The notes below the pieces were generated by a model. That model did no database searches. It saw only the letters and a list, made by a program, of their open reading frames with translations, and had not been told where the DNA came from. Shown here piece after piece: positions 13,782-28,244 of a stretch of DNA of 64,000 nucleotides. The translations under genes and the position numbers were made by a program. Position 1 is the first letter of the stretch. Every line of letters starts with the position of its first letter. Origin of the DNA: a virus. The DNA lies in the IMG/VR virus record IMGVR_UViG_3300043449_002688, positions 32,001 through 96,000 of that record, one strand, 5' to 3'.

Positions 13782-14001
13782 AATTGAACTTATTGAAAAA
13801 ATCAAAAATGATGACGATTTTATTAATTTGTTAAAATATAACAACAGTTTAAAAAACCTATTATCTGAACATCCCACAGGAGTATCTGATTCAGTTATAT
13901 GCAAAGCGCTTTGTATATCTCAAGCCGAGCTTGACGAAGCCCTTAGATCTGCTATAATGAAATTCAAAGAAAGTGTTGGGATTACCGATGACGAAATTTA
14001 A
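13774..14001 (+). CDS. Small HTH (sigma region 4-like) protein
   Basis: GVSDSVICKALCISQAELDEALRSAIMKFK. Confidence 0.5.
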   Translation: MNKIELIEKIKNDDDFINLLKYNNSLKNLLSEHPTGVSDSVICKALCISQAELDEALRSAIMKFKESVGITDDEI

Positions 14002-16090
14002 ACAGCTAATCAATCCTCATTCTCATTCAGATTACAGTTTAGACGGTGCAGCAACAGTTTCTCAAATAGTTGAAAGAAATAAACAACTTGGCGCTTCATA
14101 TGTAACCTTAACAGAACATGGAAACATGAATTCTGCTATGGAGTTATATAAGACAGCAAAGCAAAAAGGCATTACCCCCATTCTTGGGATGGAAGCTTAT
14201 CTAATCAACCCTTGGCACAATGAATATGTAGAAATTTATCGAAAAGCTATTTCTTCTGGAGTATTGCAAATAAGAGAAAAAAACCCAGAAGCTATTGAAA
14301 ATGCCATTCAAAAAAAGGCAATGAATCATTATTTACATATTACTGTCCATTTTAAGGACGCTTGGGCTTATCAATATTTTTGTAAAATTTCCCCAAAAAT
14401 GTGGTCTCGTTCTATTAAAAAATACAGCGAAGAAAAACCATTGATTACAATGGAAGAATTAGAAGCCGCCGCAGGCCATATTACTATTGGCTCTAGCTGT
14501 ATGAAGGGTCCAGTTCAATACTTTATGTTGCCATCAAAAGATGGACTGATCCCTCCTCAGCCAGAAAAATCAAAATACATGTATGAATGGCTGAAAAGAA
14601 TTGCAGGAAAAGAAAGTTTTTTCGTAGAAGTTTTTCCTCATCAAGTTACACATGAATGGCAAAAACCAGAAAAAGATTATTCTGGTCGAATCATTAAAGA
14701 AGGCTATTTTAAAGCCCACGAATGCACCTGTCATGCTCCAAACGGAGATTACCAAAAACCTCTTAATGAGTGGGTTATACATTTAGCAGAATCAAACAAG
14801 GATAAGGCCATTATTTCTTTAGATTCTCATTATGCGACAAAAAATCAAAAAGTTATCCAAGATGCAAGGCTTGGAAATGGCGATGAAAATTGGAGATTTT
14901 ATAATTATTATCACATAATGTCCACAGAAGAAGCCGCTGAAGTTTTAAGAAAAACGCTTGGCATTAATGATAGAAAAATTGAAGAATGGGTTGAAAACTC
15001 ATATGATTGGGCTTCAAATTTTGATTCTTTTAAGCTAGAAACTTCTGAAACACGATGGATTTTAGCTGGAGATTCAGACCGATTTATGAATAGGTTAAAA
15101 TCAACTATTGATAAATGGGGAAGGATGGATTGGTCAAATCAAGAAATGGTTGACCGACTTAAACATGAAATTCAAGTTTTAGCTCATAATAAAAAGCTTA
15201 ACCTTTTGGCTTACTTTGAAACGATAGAAGATGTTGCTAATTTTTGCAGAGAAAATGGCGTATTAATGAACGTTCGAGGCTCTGCAGGCGGGTCACTATT
15301 GCTTTATTTAATTGGGGTTAGCGGCATTAACCCAATGAAACATGACCTTTCTTTTGGACGATTTTTGACTGAAGGAAGAATTGAAGCAAATACTCTTCCT
15401 GATGTTGATATGGACGTTTCAGATCAAGAAAAAGTTATTGAATACTTAAAAAGTAAGTATGGAGATGGCATTTGCAGGCTCTCAACTGATTTATTGCTTC
15501 GAATTAAATCTTCAATTAAAGATGCAGAAAGATCTATATTAGGTAAGGTCAGAAAAGAAACTGAAGATCTTTGTAAAAAACTGCCCTCTACTCCACAAGG
15601 AACCGAAGATATTGCATTTATTTTTGGGTTTAATGACAAAAATACTGGCGAACATATTCCTGGCATTTTTGATAAAAATTTTGCATTACAAAAATATGCA
15701 GAGGATAATGCTGAGATTTGGAATGTAGTAAAAGAAATGCTTGGAATCCAACGCAATAAAAGTTCGCATGCTTGTTACGTTGGCGAAACCCTAATCTTAA
15801 TTTACGAAGACAACCAAGTAAAAGAAAAAAGGATAGATGCATGCGACGGAAAAACAGTATTTACAGGCCAAGGCTCGATAGCCAAAGCAAAATTAATAAA
15901 CCAGGGGAAGAAAAAAGTAAAAAAATACACACTAGAGAACGGAAAAACTTTAGTTGTAACTCCAGATCATTTGATGTTAACGAAAAAAGGCTGGATGACA
16001 ATAGAGCAAGTTTTTCAAGAGGGAGAGGGCCTAATATCACTATCGAAGACTGTAGACGGGCTGCTGAAGAAAGAAAAGGAAAGTGTTTAA
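13988..16090 (+). CDS. dnaE: DNA polymerase III alpha, N-terminal half fused to split-intein N fragment
   Basis: PHP HSHSDYS, TEHG, DSHY; RGSAGGS; PDVDMD catalytic motif; ends NKSSHA|CYVGETLI...TPDH...stop. Confidence 0.95.
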   Translation: MTKFKQLINPHSHSDYSLDGAATVSQIVERNKQLGASYVTLTEHGNMNSAMELYKTAKQKGITPILGMEAYLINPWHNEYVEIYRKAISSGVLQIREKNPEAIENAIQKKAMNHYLHITVHFKDAWAYQYFCKISPKMWSRSIKKYSEEKPLITMEELEAAAGHITIGSSCMKGPVQYFMLPSKDGLIPPQPEKSKYMYEWLKRIAGKESFFVEVFPHQVTHEWQKPEKDYSGRIIKEGYFKAHECTCHAPNGDYQKPLNEWVIHLAESNKDKAIISLDSHYATKNQKVIQDARLGNGDENWRFYNYYHIMSTEEAAEVLRKTLGINDRKIEEWVENSYDWASNFDSFKLETSETRWILAGDSDRFMNRLKSTIDKWGRMDWSNQEMVDRLKHEIQVLAHNKKLNLLAYFETIEDVANFCRENGVLMNVRGSAGGSLLLYLIGVSGINPMKHDLSFGRFLTEGRIEANTLPDVDMDVSDQEKVIEYLKSKYGDGICRLSTDLLLRIKSSIKDAERSILGKVRKETEDLCKKLPSTPQGTEDIAFIFGFNDKNTGEHIPGIFDKNFALQKYAEDNAEIWNVVKEMLGIQRNKSSHACYVGETLILIYEDNQVKEKRIDACDGKTVFTGQGSIAKAKLINQGKKKVKKYTLENGKTLVVTPDHLMLTKKGWMTIEQVFQEGEGLISLSKTVDGLLKKEKESV
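15773..16087 (+). mobile_element. Split intein N fragment (IntN, 105 aa)
   Basis: Block A CYVGETLI; block B LVVTPDHLMLTKKGW; stop codon with no blocks F/G. Confidence 0.9.
15787..15798 (+). promoter_or_regulatory. Late-promoter-like motif embedded in IntN coding sequence
   Basis: AACCCTAATCTT matches the motif upstream of structural genes; about 42 nt before ATG 15841. Confidence 0.55.
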
Positions 16091-16920
16091 GCGAGGAATA
16101 TAAAGGATTAAAATACCCACTTAAATGGCAATGTGATCATGGGCATTTATGGATATCAAATTTTCATAATATAAAATATTCAAAAACTTGGTGTCCATCT
16201 TGTTTTAAAAATAAAACTCGCCATAGGTTAACTTTTAGTTTTGAAAAAGTTAAAACAATTTGTTTATCAAAAGGATTTGAAATCATTTCTAAGGAATATA
16301 AAAATAGCTTAGAACAAATTGAAGTCAAACATATACCTTGCCAAACATCTTTTAAAACTACCTTTCATAATATTACGCATAAAAAAGTTTGTCCAGAATG
16401 CTCTTTAAGAAAAAGAGCCGATATAATAGAAGCTGAAAATTTAGTTAAAGTAAAAGAAGGAAAAATAATAGGTTTTGCTAAAAAATCTAAAAATAATTCA
16501 ACATGGGAATGCGCTAAAGGCCATCAATGGAGAACCACTTGGAGTAATATTAAAAAAGGTTCTTGGTGTCCTTTTTGTGCAGGTAAAAAAAGTATTTCTT
16601 CAATACATAAACAAGCTGTTGCTAAATTATATCAACATAAAAGATGGGATGCTGAAAAAGGATATCAGACTACAATCGAATTAGAAGATATCGTAAATGC
16701 ATTAAAGTCTAAATGTGTTTATTGTGACAATAATGCTACCAATGTAGATCGTAAAAACTCAAATTTAGGGCATTTAAAAGAAAATTGTGTTCCATGTTGT
16801 GGAAGATGTAATAGAGTCAAAAATAATTGTATTTCTTATGAAACCATGCTAAAAATAGGCAAGATATTAAAAGAAGAGGAACAAAATGAAGATAATAAAA
16901 GCGGAGGAGCTGGGTTATGA
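15841..16920 (+). CDS. Free-standing homing endonuclease-like protein (3 Zn-ribbon repeats plus C-terminal HNH-type nuclease)
   Basis: WQCDHGHLW..WCPSC, KHIPC..VCPEC, WECAKGHQW..WCPFC; CVYC..VDRKNSNLGHLKENCVPCCGRCNRVK; AAGGA 7 nt before ATG 15841 (start uncertain). Confidence 0.8.
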   Translation: MRRKNSIYRPRLDSQSKINKPGEEKSKKIHTRERKNFSCNSRSFDVNEKRLDDNRASFSRGRGPNITIEDCRRAAEERKGKCLSEEYKGLKYPLKWQCDHGHLWISNFHNIKYSKTWCPSCFKNKTRHRLTFSFEKVKTICLSKGFEIISKEYKNSLEQIEVKHIPCQTSFKTTFHNITHKKVCPECSLRKRADIIEAENLVKVKEGKIIGFAKKSKNNSTWECAKGHQWRTTWSNIKKGSWCPFCAGKKSISSIHKQAVAKLYQHKRWDAEKGYQTTIELEDIVNALKSKCVYCDNNATNVDRKNSNLGHLKENCVPCCGRCNRVKNNCISYETMLKIGKILKEEEQNEDNKSGGAGL

Positions 16921-16993
16921 GCAAGTTTATGACTTATCAGTTTTTCACGAAGATCACAGTTTTGTTCTTGAAACTGGCAATGTAACGCACAAT
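16886..16993 (+). mobile_element. Split intein C fragment (IntC, 36 aa)
   Basis: Block F VYDLSV..HSF; block G THN followed by Cys+1. Confidence 0.92.
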
Positions 16994-18841
16994 TGCGGAT
17001 TTATTATTTGCGATAAGCCAGTAACTGACTATATGCCTGTTATTAAAATAAATAACGAATGGGTCACAGGCTTTTCTCCAAAGTCAGTTGAAGCAGCAGG
17101 CGGCGTTAAATTTGACTTATTGGGCCTTAATACATTAAGAGACATTCAAATTTGCCTGGATTCTATTAGAAAACGAACAAATGAGAATCTAGATCCATGG
17201 AATTTGCCTTATGACGAAAAAGTTTGGGATATTTTTATAAAAGGCGATGTTGATGGAGTTTTTCAATTTGATACACCAACAATTCGTCCATATGTCATAA
17301 AAACAAAGCCAAAGACCATTGATGAACTTGCTGCGCTAACGGCTCTTGGCAGACCTGGAACGCTAGATGCCCCTGCAGGAGACTCTACGGCAAGGACATT
17401 AGCAGAGCTTTATGTTGACAGAGCAAACGGCGAACCTGTTCAGTATTTGCATTCTGATCTTGAACCTATTTTAAAGCAAACTTATGGAATTCAATTGTTT
17501 CAAGAACAAACAATTAAAATTTTTACATCAATAGGCGGAATGTCTGATGCAGAAGCCGATGAGGTTCGTAGAGGTATAGGCAAAAAGAATAAAGCAGTTC
17601 TTGATATAGCTGCAGAAAAACTTAAGATTGCCTGCTTAAAAAGAGGATGGACCGAAGAACAAGTTGCCGTATTAATTCAACAAATTGAAGCATCTGCTAA
17701 CTATTCTTTTAACAAATCACATGCAGTTTCATATGCTTATGTAGCTTACGCTTGCATGTATTTAAAAACAAAATACAAGCTTGATTGGTGGAAAGCCATT
17801 CTTTCTAATGCTACAAAAGATGAACTTGCTACTAAATTTTGGAAAAACGTACAAGAATTTACCACACTTCCAGATATTAATATTTCTACAGATGATTATG
17901 AAATAGTTGAAAACAAAATCGTAGCGCCTTTTTCAATCCTTAGCGGTGGGGTTGGTGAAAAAGCTTATGAAAGTTTAATGAAAAATAAACCTTATAAAAA
18001 TCTTGAGCACTTTGTTTCTTGTCATTTTCCTACAAAAGAAGAAGAAGATCGCAAGAAAGCCTTGAAAAAGAATGGTATTGATTTAGAAAAAAATGTAAGA
18101 AAATCAGCAGTAACTGCAGCTATAGCTAGAAAATTAATTGCTGGGGGCGTTTTAGATTCATTATTCGAGCCAAATATGTTAATTGAAGAAAAATTGTTTC
18201 AATTTGAACAAGTTAGAGGTCAAATTAAAGGCAAAAAGCCAGAAAAAGTGCCAGATGAATATGTTGGAGTATCTACTTTAGGTAAATACTTATTAAGAAA
18301 AGAGCTTATTCAAATCCATTCTGACGATTTAAGAGAAATAATGCTCCCTAGCCGACATGGTAAAAAACTACCTTGCAGAATTGGAAATGAATATGAGTCT
18401 TGGTTTTCTCAAGATGGGGTAATTGTACTTGATGGAAATCAAATACAATGGTTTAGAAAATACTTTGATTTAGGCGTTTCTATAGAAACTTTAGTTCAAA
18501 AATTTGACAGTCTACTTCAAAATAAAGACCCTTATCAAATTTCTGTTCCTAGTCAAATAGGACACAATGAAAGGTATTTCCAGGCAATAGGTTATGTTGT
18601 AGGCGAAAAAGCTTTTCCTTACAAAAATAAAACCAAACAAGCAACTAGATTAGTTATTGATTTTAATGGATATTTTACTGAAGAAATGATGTGGCCAGAG
18701 CAAGACGAAGACCAAGCGGAAATGGGCTTTAAAAGCCTTCCCGTATTGGCAATATTTGGATTAAATAAAAAAGGAATTTATTTAAAAAAGGTTTTAAAAC
18801 TCTTGAGCGAAACTGACTTAGAAAAGTACAACATGACTTGA
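16886..18841 (+). CDS. dnaE: Split-intein C fragment fused to DNA polymerase III alpha, C-terminal half
   Basis: GAGGA RBS; MKIIKAEELGYEQVYDLSV...FVLETGNVTHN|CGFII; then KFDLLGL, GVFQF, RPG, QEQ, YSFNKSHA. Confidence 0.95.
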   Translation: MKIIKAEELGYEQVYDLSVFHEDHSFVLETGNVTHNCGFIICDKPVTDYMPVIKINNEWVTGFSPKSVEAAGGVKFDLLGLNTLRDIQICLDSIRKRTNENLDPWNLPYDEKVWDIFIKGDVDGVFQFDTPTIRPYVIKTKPKTIDELAALTALGRPGTLDAPAGDSTARTLAELYVDRANGEPVQYLHSDLEPILKQTYGIQLFQEQTIKIFTSIGGMSDAEADEVRRGIGKKNKAVLDIAAEKLKIACLKRGWTEEQVAVLIQQIEASANYSFNKSHAVSYAYVAYACMYLKTKYKLDWWKAILSNATKDELATKFWKNVQEFTTLPDINISTDDYEIVENKIVAPFSILSGGVGEKAYESLMKNKPYKNLEHFVSCHFPTKEEEDRKKALKKNGIDLEKNVRKSAVTAAIARKLIAGGVLDSLFEPNMLIEEKLFQFEQVRGQIKGKKPEKVPDEYVGVSTLGKYLLRKELIQIHSDDLREIMLPSRHGKKLPCRIGNEYESWFSQDGVIVLDGNQIQWFRKYFDLGVSIETLVQKFDSLLQNKDPYQISVPSQIGHNERYFQAIGYVVGEKAFPYKNKTKQATRLVIDFNGYFTEEMMWPEQDEDQAEMGFKSLPVLAIFGLNKKGIYLKKVLKLLSETDLEKYNMT

Positions 18842-28212: not shown

Positions 28213-28244
28213 AAAACACCTTTAATAACAAATATTTACAAAAA

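Follow-up and report, generated by a model that had tools for sequence, protein, structure and literature searches.

A fractured phage dnaE with a predicted split intein and an overlapping homing-endonuclease frame

Fractured genes were defined by Dassa et al. (2009) in metagenomes of oceans and lakes (PMC2677866); they described three dnaE loci (DnaE-1, DnaE-2 and DnaE-3) with split inteins at three sites, none of them the cyanobacterial site (PMC2677866). The endonucleases encoded at these loci were of the GIY-YIG or Vsr-like (EDxHD) type, and HNH endonucleases were stated as unseen in fracturing genes (PMC2677866). The endonuclease gene was preceded by a non-coding spacer of 27–51 nucleotides (nt), often with a hairpin (PMC2677866); putative T4 late-promoter elements were present and the 3′ end of the endonuclease gene ran into the C-intein for 6–69 base pairs (bp) (PMC2677866). 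Here we describe a dnaE locus at positions 13988–18841 of a 64,000-nt stretch of phage DNA (the window), which comprises bases 32001–96000 of a 154,801-base IMG/VR virus record (IMGVR_UViG_3300043449_002688) with a CheckV completeness of 96%. The locus is probably best explained as a fractured dnaE that encodes a split intein and carries an overlapping homing cassette.

By open reading frame (ORF) listing and direct reading, dnaE in the window consists of two adjacent + strand ORFs, DnaE-N (13988–16090) and DnaE-C (16886–18841). As in the Dassa loci, each of the adjacent halves carries one half of an intein, an endonuclease gene lies between them and the context is phage-like. The features of the locus, with lengths in amino acids (aa), are as follows.

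13988–15772, + strand: DnaE N-extein, 595 aa, comprising the PHP domain and the beginning of the polymerase core (with the PDVDMD aspartates).
15773–16090 (coding 15773–16087), + strand: N-intein, 105 aa plus the stop codon TAA at 16088–16090, with Cys1 and block B TPDH.
15787–15798, + strand: promoter-like 12-mer AACCCTAATCTT, inside intein block A (where it codes for ETLIL) and 42 nt upstream of the ATG at 15841.
15829–15843, + strand: AAGGA (15829–15833), a 7-nt spacer and ATG (15841–15843), the likely endonuclease start, in the −1 frame.
15841–16920, + strand: putative homing-endonuclease ORF, 359 aa if read from 15841, in the −1 frame relative to both dnaE halves.
16036–16599, + strand: predicted DNA-binding part of the endonuclease, with three modules, each a helix plus a treble-clef zinc ribbon.
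16600–16917, + strand: predicted catalytic part of the endonuclease, a PacI-like HNH (beta-beta-alpha-metal) domain with CxxC...CxxC, D-R, G-H and N motifs.
16875–16888, + strand: Shine–Dalgarno (SD) sequence AGAGGA (16875–16880) and ATG at 16886 of DnaE-C, located within the 3′-terminal part of the endonuclease ORF.
16886–16993, + strand: C-intein, 36 aa, with block F VYDLSVFHEDHSF and block G THN, followed by Cys+1.
16994–18841, + strand: DnaE C-extein, 615 aa, with Cys+1 at 16994–16996, the stop codon at 18839–18841, the remainder of the polymerase core, the fingers and the HhH domain.

The locus belongs to the fractured-gene kind, and fractured dnaE genes with split inteins are already known. 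Whether this allele had been described was left to a search by the original prediction, which was made from the DNA sequence alone; fractured dnaE genes at non-cyanobacterial sites have been published, as the three Dassa loci, but the endonuclease type and the overlap differ here. The fractured-gene layout that it recognized agrees with that of Dassa et al. (2009), but the endonuclease is not merely intervening, as had been supposed, since its ORF overlaps the N-intein by about 250 nt. The site in the window, which like those of the Dassa loci differs from the cyanobacterial one, may be one of DnaE-1, DnaE-2 or DnaE-3. New elements are the HNH-type endonuclease, the overprinting of a splicing domain with embedded expression signals and the full series of allele forms described below.

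DnaE-N runs from an ATG at 13988 to the TAA at 16088–16090, and this start agrees with the N-termini of relatives (MGKFKQLNNPHSHS in L003, a 157-kilobase (kb) IMG/VR contig). The N-extein matched PHROG 405 DNA polymerase and, in Pfam, PHP (E = 1.4e-27) and DNA_pol3_alpha (E = 4.3e-32, profile positions 19–215 of 260). In the C-extein, the DNA_pol3_alpha match resumes at profile positions 212–260 of 260, together with DNA_pol3_finger (E = 9e-36) and HHH_6. A search of the whole phage genome, estimated to be 96% complete, recovered a single dnaE, as these two matches. The G+C (GC) content is about 33%. A blastn search of 50,697 phage records with the 4.9-kb region gave no match.

Contig L003 encodes one uninterrupted DnaE of 1199 aa, which is 66% identical to that of the window; the N-extein and residues 1–600 of the uninterrupted protein are likewise 66% identical. 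It reads ...RNKGSHA-CGYLITD... precisely where the window has ...RNKSSHA, the intein and then CGFIICD..., and on this sequence evidence the L003 gene is the empty site of this intein. In an alignment, the insertion site corresponds to A576|A577 (VHA|AGV) of Taq Pol III alpha. It lies 3′ of the PDxD aspartates and about 40 residues ahead of the KxDxLGL aspartate, which is found in the C-extein (KFDLLGL), such that the catalytic triad is divided across the halves. Because the triad is divided between two gene products, we infer that ligation is needed for polymerase activity. The proposal that ligation to RNKSSHA-CGFII would restore the conserved HA(A/G/C)G motif of DnaE fits both the GSHA-CGY of L003 and the VHA-AGV of Taq; the junction peptide of the predicted ligated product contains SSHACGFIICDK. 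The FNKSH motif (NYSFNKSHAVSY) is unbroken in DnaE-C, as had been noted, and so the insertion site is other than the FAEY|CFNKSH site of the cyanobacterial allele.

Sequence comparisons support a canonical class 1 split intein at dnaE. The termini described in the original prediction are all present: DnaE-N ends in a 105-aa N-intein with Cys1, TPDH and a stop codon, and DnaE-C has its own ribosome-binding site and ATG (AGAGGA, ATG at 16886) and opens with a 36-aa C-intein that ends HN|C (THN, then Cys+1). Cys1, the class 1 nucleophile, is encoded by TGT at 15773–15775, immediately 3′ of the ...SSHA codons, and is shared by all 11 homologues aligned at this site. In the block B motif T-x-x-H (TPDH), the T is invariant and the P, D and H are conserved in at least 90% of the aligned homologues. 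The C-intein is 54–61% identical to the C-inteins of four other loci, and H35, N36 and C37 are invariant in the five loci, in keeping with blocks F and G of a class 1 intein. The comparison with known inteins that had been recommended gave matches to gp41-1 and to the Ssp and Npu DnaE inteins: in PDB sequence searches, the N-intein matched gp41-1 (E = 3.6e-4) plus the Npu and Ssp inteins, and the C-intein matched the Ssp and Npu DnaE C-inteins over its entire length (E = 2e-3 to 4e-2 for the matches of the intein pieces to cyanobacterial DnaE inteins). The genome holds one copy only of this N-intein.

The pair resembles the cyanobacterial split DnaE inteins (Ssp, Npu) in host protein, in being of class 1 with Cys1 and Cys+1, in its 36-aa C-intein starting MxK(I/V), in being split at the endonuclease-insertion loop and in detectable sequence similarity. 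Unlike them, it is inserted at HA|CG, its halves are adjacent rather than at distant loci and an endonuclease gene is present. It also differs from them in charge: the N-intein of the window copy has a net charge of +4 and the C-intein of −5, which is the polarity of gp41-1 (10.1101/546465). Reversed charge was considered as a trait of the family and rejected, since the polarity is not shared by the related loci L083, L149, L006 and L151.

Docking was predicted from alignments of the N-intein and the C-intein, each with 10 extein residues. The two halves were predicted to dock with an ipSAE of 0.70 (0.01 for the best control), a mark attained by 58 of 80 solved complexes and 2 of 110 mismatched pairs; because similar split-intein complexes have already been solved, this score indicates likeness to those complexes and is not proof of binding. 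The docking runs shared at least 87% of contacts, with partner pLDDT of at least 69.

We searched for relatives of the allele exhaustively with HMMER, using 30 extein residues plus the N-intein as the query. At a cut-off of E ≤ 1e-10, this gave 19 metagenomic protein clusters, each aligned across the same junction, R.K..HA|C; a word-index protein search limited to the N-intein region returned the query itself only. Some ORFs end soon after the N-intein (for example, P0034, P0035, P0037, P0040–P0042, P0044, P0046 and P0047), and others contain the N-intein and the same endonuclease in one in-frame ORF that ends ...(V/I)DP (P0043 and P0048–P0051). In P0036, the N-intein is joined to a different long endonuclease. 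P0052 is a contiguous mini-intein with a short endonuclease remnant, and P0059 a contiguous long intein with a different middle (E = 2.6e-7).

Layouts at the DNA level were established at four loci. L149 has a split intein and no endonuclease, with a 36-nt gap between intact intein halves. L151 has an in-frame fusion of N-intein and endonuclease, with a GTGA overlap onto the C-intein ORF. L083 (46% GC) and L006 (64% GC) have the intein at the same site and, like the window, the endonuclease in the −1 frame; in L083, the endonuclease and C-intein ORFs overlap by ATGA. L006 has two peculiarities: its endonuclease lacks two of the three zinc-ribbon modules and, at L006:4714-5626, its DnaE-N ORF continues beyond the N-intein and crosses the endonuclease region in another frame over about 120 codons.

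These relatives bear on the possibility that errors of assembly or sequencing created the stop codon and frame changes of the window within what is one continuous HNH-containing intein. Contiguous inteins do exist at this site (P0052 and P0059), and the element (15773–16993) has a length of 1221 nt, a multiple of three. The error reading, however, needs two separate frame changes, and no single-base correction can join the N-intein and endonuclease, since their homologies overlap on the same nucleotides. DnaE-C, moreover, has its own SD sequence and ATG right where split C-inteins start (MKI...). The same −1-frame layout recurs in assemblies that are independent of one another, come from different samples and differ widely in base composition (L083, L006 and the N-terminus of P0002); this recurrence effectively rules out an assembly artefact and argues for horizontal spread. 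We regard sequencing error as extremely improbable.

A second alternative is that the polymerase halves form a non-covalent complex held together by the intein pieces, or that dnaE is decaying and the host polymerase is used. Some split proteins do work unligated, and splicing here is a prediction. Yet all the splicing residues are kept and are conserved over diverged loci, both exteins retain full domain sets and catalytic aspartates, and this is the sole dnaE of a nearly complete genome. Split loci that lack an endonuclease, such as L149, still have intact intein halves. We judge this alternative very unlikely, and the intein very probably functional in trans-splicing.

The endonuclease is carried in one copy in the genome and has full-length homologues of 50–54% identity (P0002–P0006). 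It matched PHROG endonuclease, HNH and endonuclease VII families; its DNA-binding part matched DUF4379 (E = 1.6e-8) and DUF723 (E = 1.5e-3) in Pfam, and PHROG 681 and 559. An AlphaFold2 model built from a 12-sequence alignment (mean pLDDT 86.6, pTM 0.43) predicts three repeated modules followed by a C-terminal domain. Pfam HNH gave no match on the C-terminal 106 aa; the top Foldseek match of the catalytic part was PacI (3ldy_A; E = 1.1e-4, probability 1.00, target TM 0.59). Invariant residues include two CxxC pairs (C227, C230, C255 and C258) as well as R239, H246, N250 and N259. The C-terminal domain thus has its best structural match in a small zinc-stabilized beta-beta-alpha-metal nuclease (PDB 3ldy), which it is predicted to resemble. 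It differs from PacI in sequence (16% identity), in the addition of three zinc-ribbon modules and in belonging to a putative homing element rather than a restriction–modification system; it differs from the GIY-YIG and Vsr-like endonucleases of the Dassa loci in its zinc-ribbon and PacI-like HNH composition.

The endonuclease frame is stop-free from 15772 to 16920 and spans the entire N-intein. Read from 15841, the ORF shares 250 nt with the N-intein ORF and 35 nt (16886–16920) with the C-intein ORF; the latter overlap falls within the range of the Dassa loci. There is no spacer of 27–51 nt with a hairpin in the window, unlike in the Dassa loci, and the endonuclease ORF instead overprints the N-intein; no RNA hairpin beyond chance was found at the endonuclease 5′ end (z = +0.65). 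The conserved endonuclease domain begins at 16036, ahead of the N-intein stop codon at 16088, and the last N-intein strand (GLISL) shares its nucleotides with the opening residues of the endonuclease (NITIE). A nuclease of the beta-beta-alpha-metal type in a frame other than that of the intein has been published for contiguous inteins, whose authors considered that a free-standing endonuclease had invaded the intein and could later shift into frame. In the window, by contrast, the intein is split and the second ORF overprints splicing blocks A–B, not the former endonuclease region.

The openness of the −1 frame over the N-intein is unusual. Only 1 of 2119 stop-free −1-frame runs in the long ORFs of the window, this one, reaches at least 88 codons; the next longest has 60 and the mean is 8. 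In L083, the corresponding run is of 81 codons and the next longest of 51. Over the 110 codons from Cys1, the −1 frame contains no stop codon in the window or in L006 and one in L083, which is upstream of its ATG. The −1 frame contains 6 in L149 and 4 in L151, neither of which has a −1-frame endonuclease. The +1 frame of the window contains 19 over the same codons.

The ATG at 15841 arises from the Ala-Cys codons of the intein A-C-D-G motif. Start codons are found at the equivalent position in relatives: an ATG in L083, with AAAGGA 9 nt upstream, and a GTG in L006; the P0002 protein begins ‘MRW’ at the same alignment column. Direct reading found no in-frame ATG, GTG or TTG between 15841 and 16036.

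The 12-mer upstream of this start, AACCCTAATCTT, has 9 copies with at most one mismatch in the window, compared with 0.69 expected (13-fold enriched), and 6 of the 9 sit 24–80 nt upstream of the SD sequence and ATG of − strand genes. Its 10-nt core is present 9 times in the 155-kb genome; 8 of these copies are on the − strand, and the sole + strand copy is the one in the N-intein. The motif AA(C/T)CCTAATCT(T/A) lies 24–80 nt upstream of gene starts on the − strand at 28244, 35359, 38685, 40554, 46381 and 56958; further copies at 1822 and 56319 fall inside ORFs. It is probably the promoter of the phage for a − strand gene block. We infer that the endonuclease has its own promoter, probably a late one, written into intein block A, in which respect the locus would parallel the Dassa loci with their late-promoter elements ahead of the endonuclease gene.

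The endonuclease might instead not begin at 15841 and be made by a programmed −1 frameshift near the N-intein end, as a fusion, or from a non-canonical start such as the ATC at 16036. The family tolerates fusion of N-intein and endonuclease (P0043, P0048–P0051 and L151), the stretch from 15841 to the conserved domain at 16036 offers no further ATG, GTG or TTG, and a strong SD-like run, AGGGAGAGGG, ends 6 nt ahead of the ATC. However, reading the junction by eye revealed no slippery heptamer of the form X XXY YYZ, and a frameshift late enough to spare the last N-intein strand would drop the start of the endonuclease domain because the same nucleotides encode both. Either mechanism would leave the promoter-like motif unexplained, as well as 65–88 codons of upstream −1-frame openness in an AT-rich genome. 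We consider these mechanisms unlikely; a start at 15841 driven by the internal promoter is on balance favoured.

Several points weigh against this account of the intein and its endonuclease. The Pfam intein models (Intein_splicing, and Vint on the N-intein) match the short pieces only below cut-off. In the endonuclease, D-R replaces the classical HNH D-H and, because the first His is Arg, the nuclease competence of the predicted HNH domain is uncertain. An ATG or GTG at the A/E-C-D/N motif follows near-automatically from the conserved Cys codon and is weak evidence alone; the real evidence for a start at 15841 is the open frame together with the SD sequence, not the start codon. L006 has no SD sequence ahead of its GTG and a better-placed GTG downstream. 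The 12-mer counts as a promoter by position, and every step of the proposed mechanism is drawn from sequence and prediction.

The proposed mechanism is as follows. Two polypeptides would be made, DnaE-N carrying the N-intein at its end and DnaE-C led by the C-intein. The intein halves would come together as a HINT fold and trans-splice, ligating ...RNKSSHA to CGFIICDK... to give one Pol III alpha of about 1210 aa; the catalytic triad would be complete in neither half alone. The element that lies between the halves and overlaps them would be a mobile homing cassette encoding the zinc-ribbon and PacI-like HNH endonuclease, which would presumably cut intein-less dnaE at this site, with the result that the whole cassette is copied in. 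Expression of the endonuclease would depend on signals within the N-intein sequence (the 12-mer at 15787, AAGGA and the ATG at 15841). A transcript begun at the 12-mer would carry the endonuclease ATG and not the dnaE-N start, which would separate the overlapping readings in time.

Other elements were seen in relatives and elsewhere in the same phage. In some relatives (P0046 and P0036), dnaE is broken into three or more pieces. P0046, a middle piece of 290 aa, has this N-intein at its end and, at its start, the C-intein of a second split intein, the insertion site of which is GRG|SAGG; P0036 likewise begins with a foreign C-intein. Two DnaE-N proteins that end in this N-intein, P0034 and P0042, also contain a contiguous intein with an endonuclease further upstream; it lies within the PHP region of P0034 and ahead of the polymerase core of P0042. 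The dnaE fragments P0039, P0045, P0049 and P0052 open with MKIK or MKVK... just ahead of GWL..RFGDH.AQIS, and these starts suggest that phage dnaE is repeatedly broken at one more point, upstream of the intein described here. A C-intein profile scan of genome contigs found only RtcB inteins in Rubrobacteraceae metagenome-assembled genomes (MAGs), with no cellular dnaE carrying the allele seen; in one such MAG (L153:785-3340), an RtcB RNA ligase has a contiguous intein, the C-terminal blocks of which are 69% identical to the window C-intein over 26 residues. The phage itself has a second, contiguous intein, in an 850-aa SF2 helicase (ResIII/DEAD and Helicase_C) that carries Intein_splicing and a LAGLIDADG_2 endonuclease; this gene occupies 3–1088 of the window (− strand) and continues into G000:C1:30536-33088 (locus L152:737-3289).

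In a maximum-likelihood tree of the shared endonuclease part, which is small (14 rows) and has a midpoint root only, the in-frame fused forms make up one clade (100/99). This adjoins the out-of-frame L083 and L006 endonucleases (85/80 and 86/84), and the window endonuclease pairs with P0002 (87/86). The tree fits the tentative view that a free-standing out-of-frame endonuclease later moved into frame; P0052, for its part, looks like a split form re-fused by deletion. A broader proposal is that the overprinted endonuclease with its embedded promoter and ribosome-binding site is conserved and functional, and that the family records both transitions, from an out-of-frame HNH to an in-frame one through an insertion or deletion and from a split intein to a cis mini-intein (P0052). 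We offer it tentatively, as a possibility somewhat more doubtful than not.

Protein ligation relies mainly on natural split inteins, and there is demand for new orthogonal pairs; the pair in the window combines a convenient format (105 and 36 aa) with Cys1 and Cys+1. The second gene, equipped with predicted signals of its own, lies in another frame over a catalytic splicing domain, an unusual case of dual coding that would be under two sets of constraints. One insertion site shows all stages: empty, contiguous, mini, fused N-intein and endonuclease, overlapped by a free-standing endonuclease, and split with no endonuclease. With this series, the long-debated origin of split inteins, and that of the endonuclease domains in inteins, can be tested by comparison. 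If both transitions are true, the family would provide direct natural evidence on how inteins acquire endonuclease domains, and gene fracture would be reversible.

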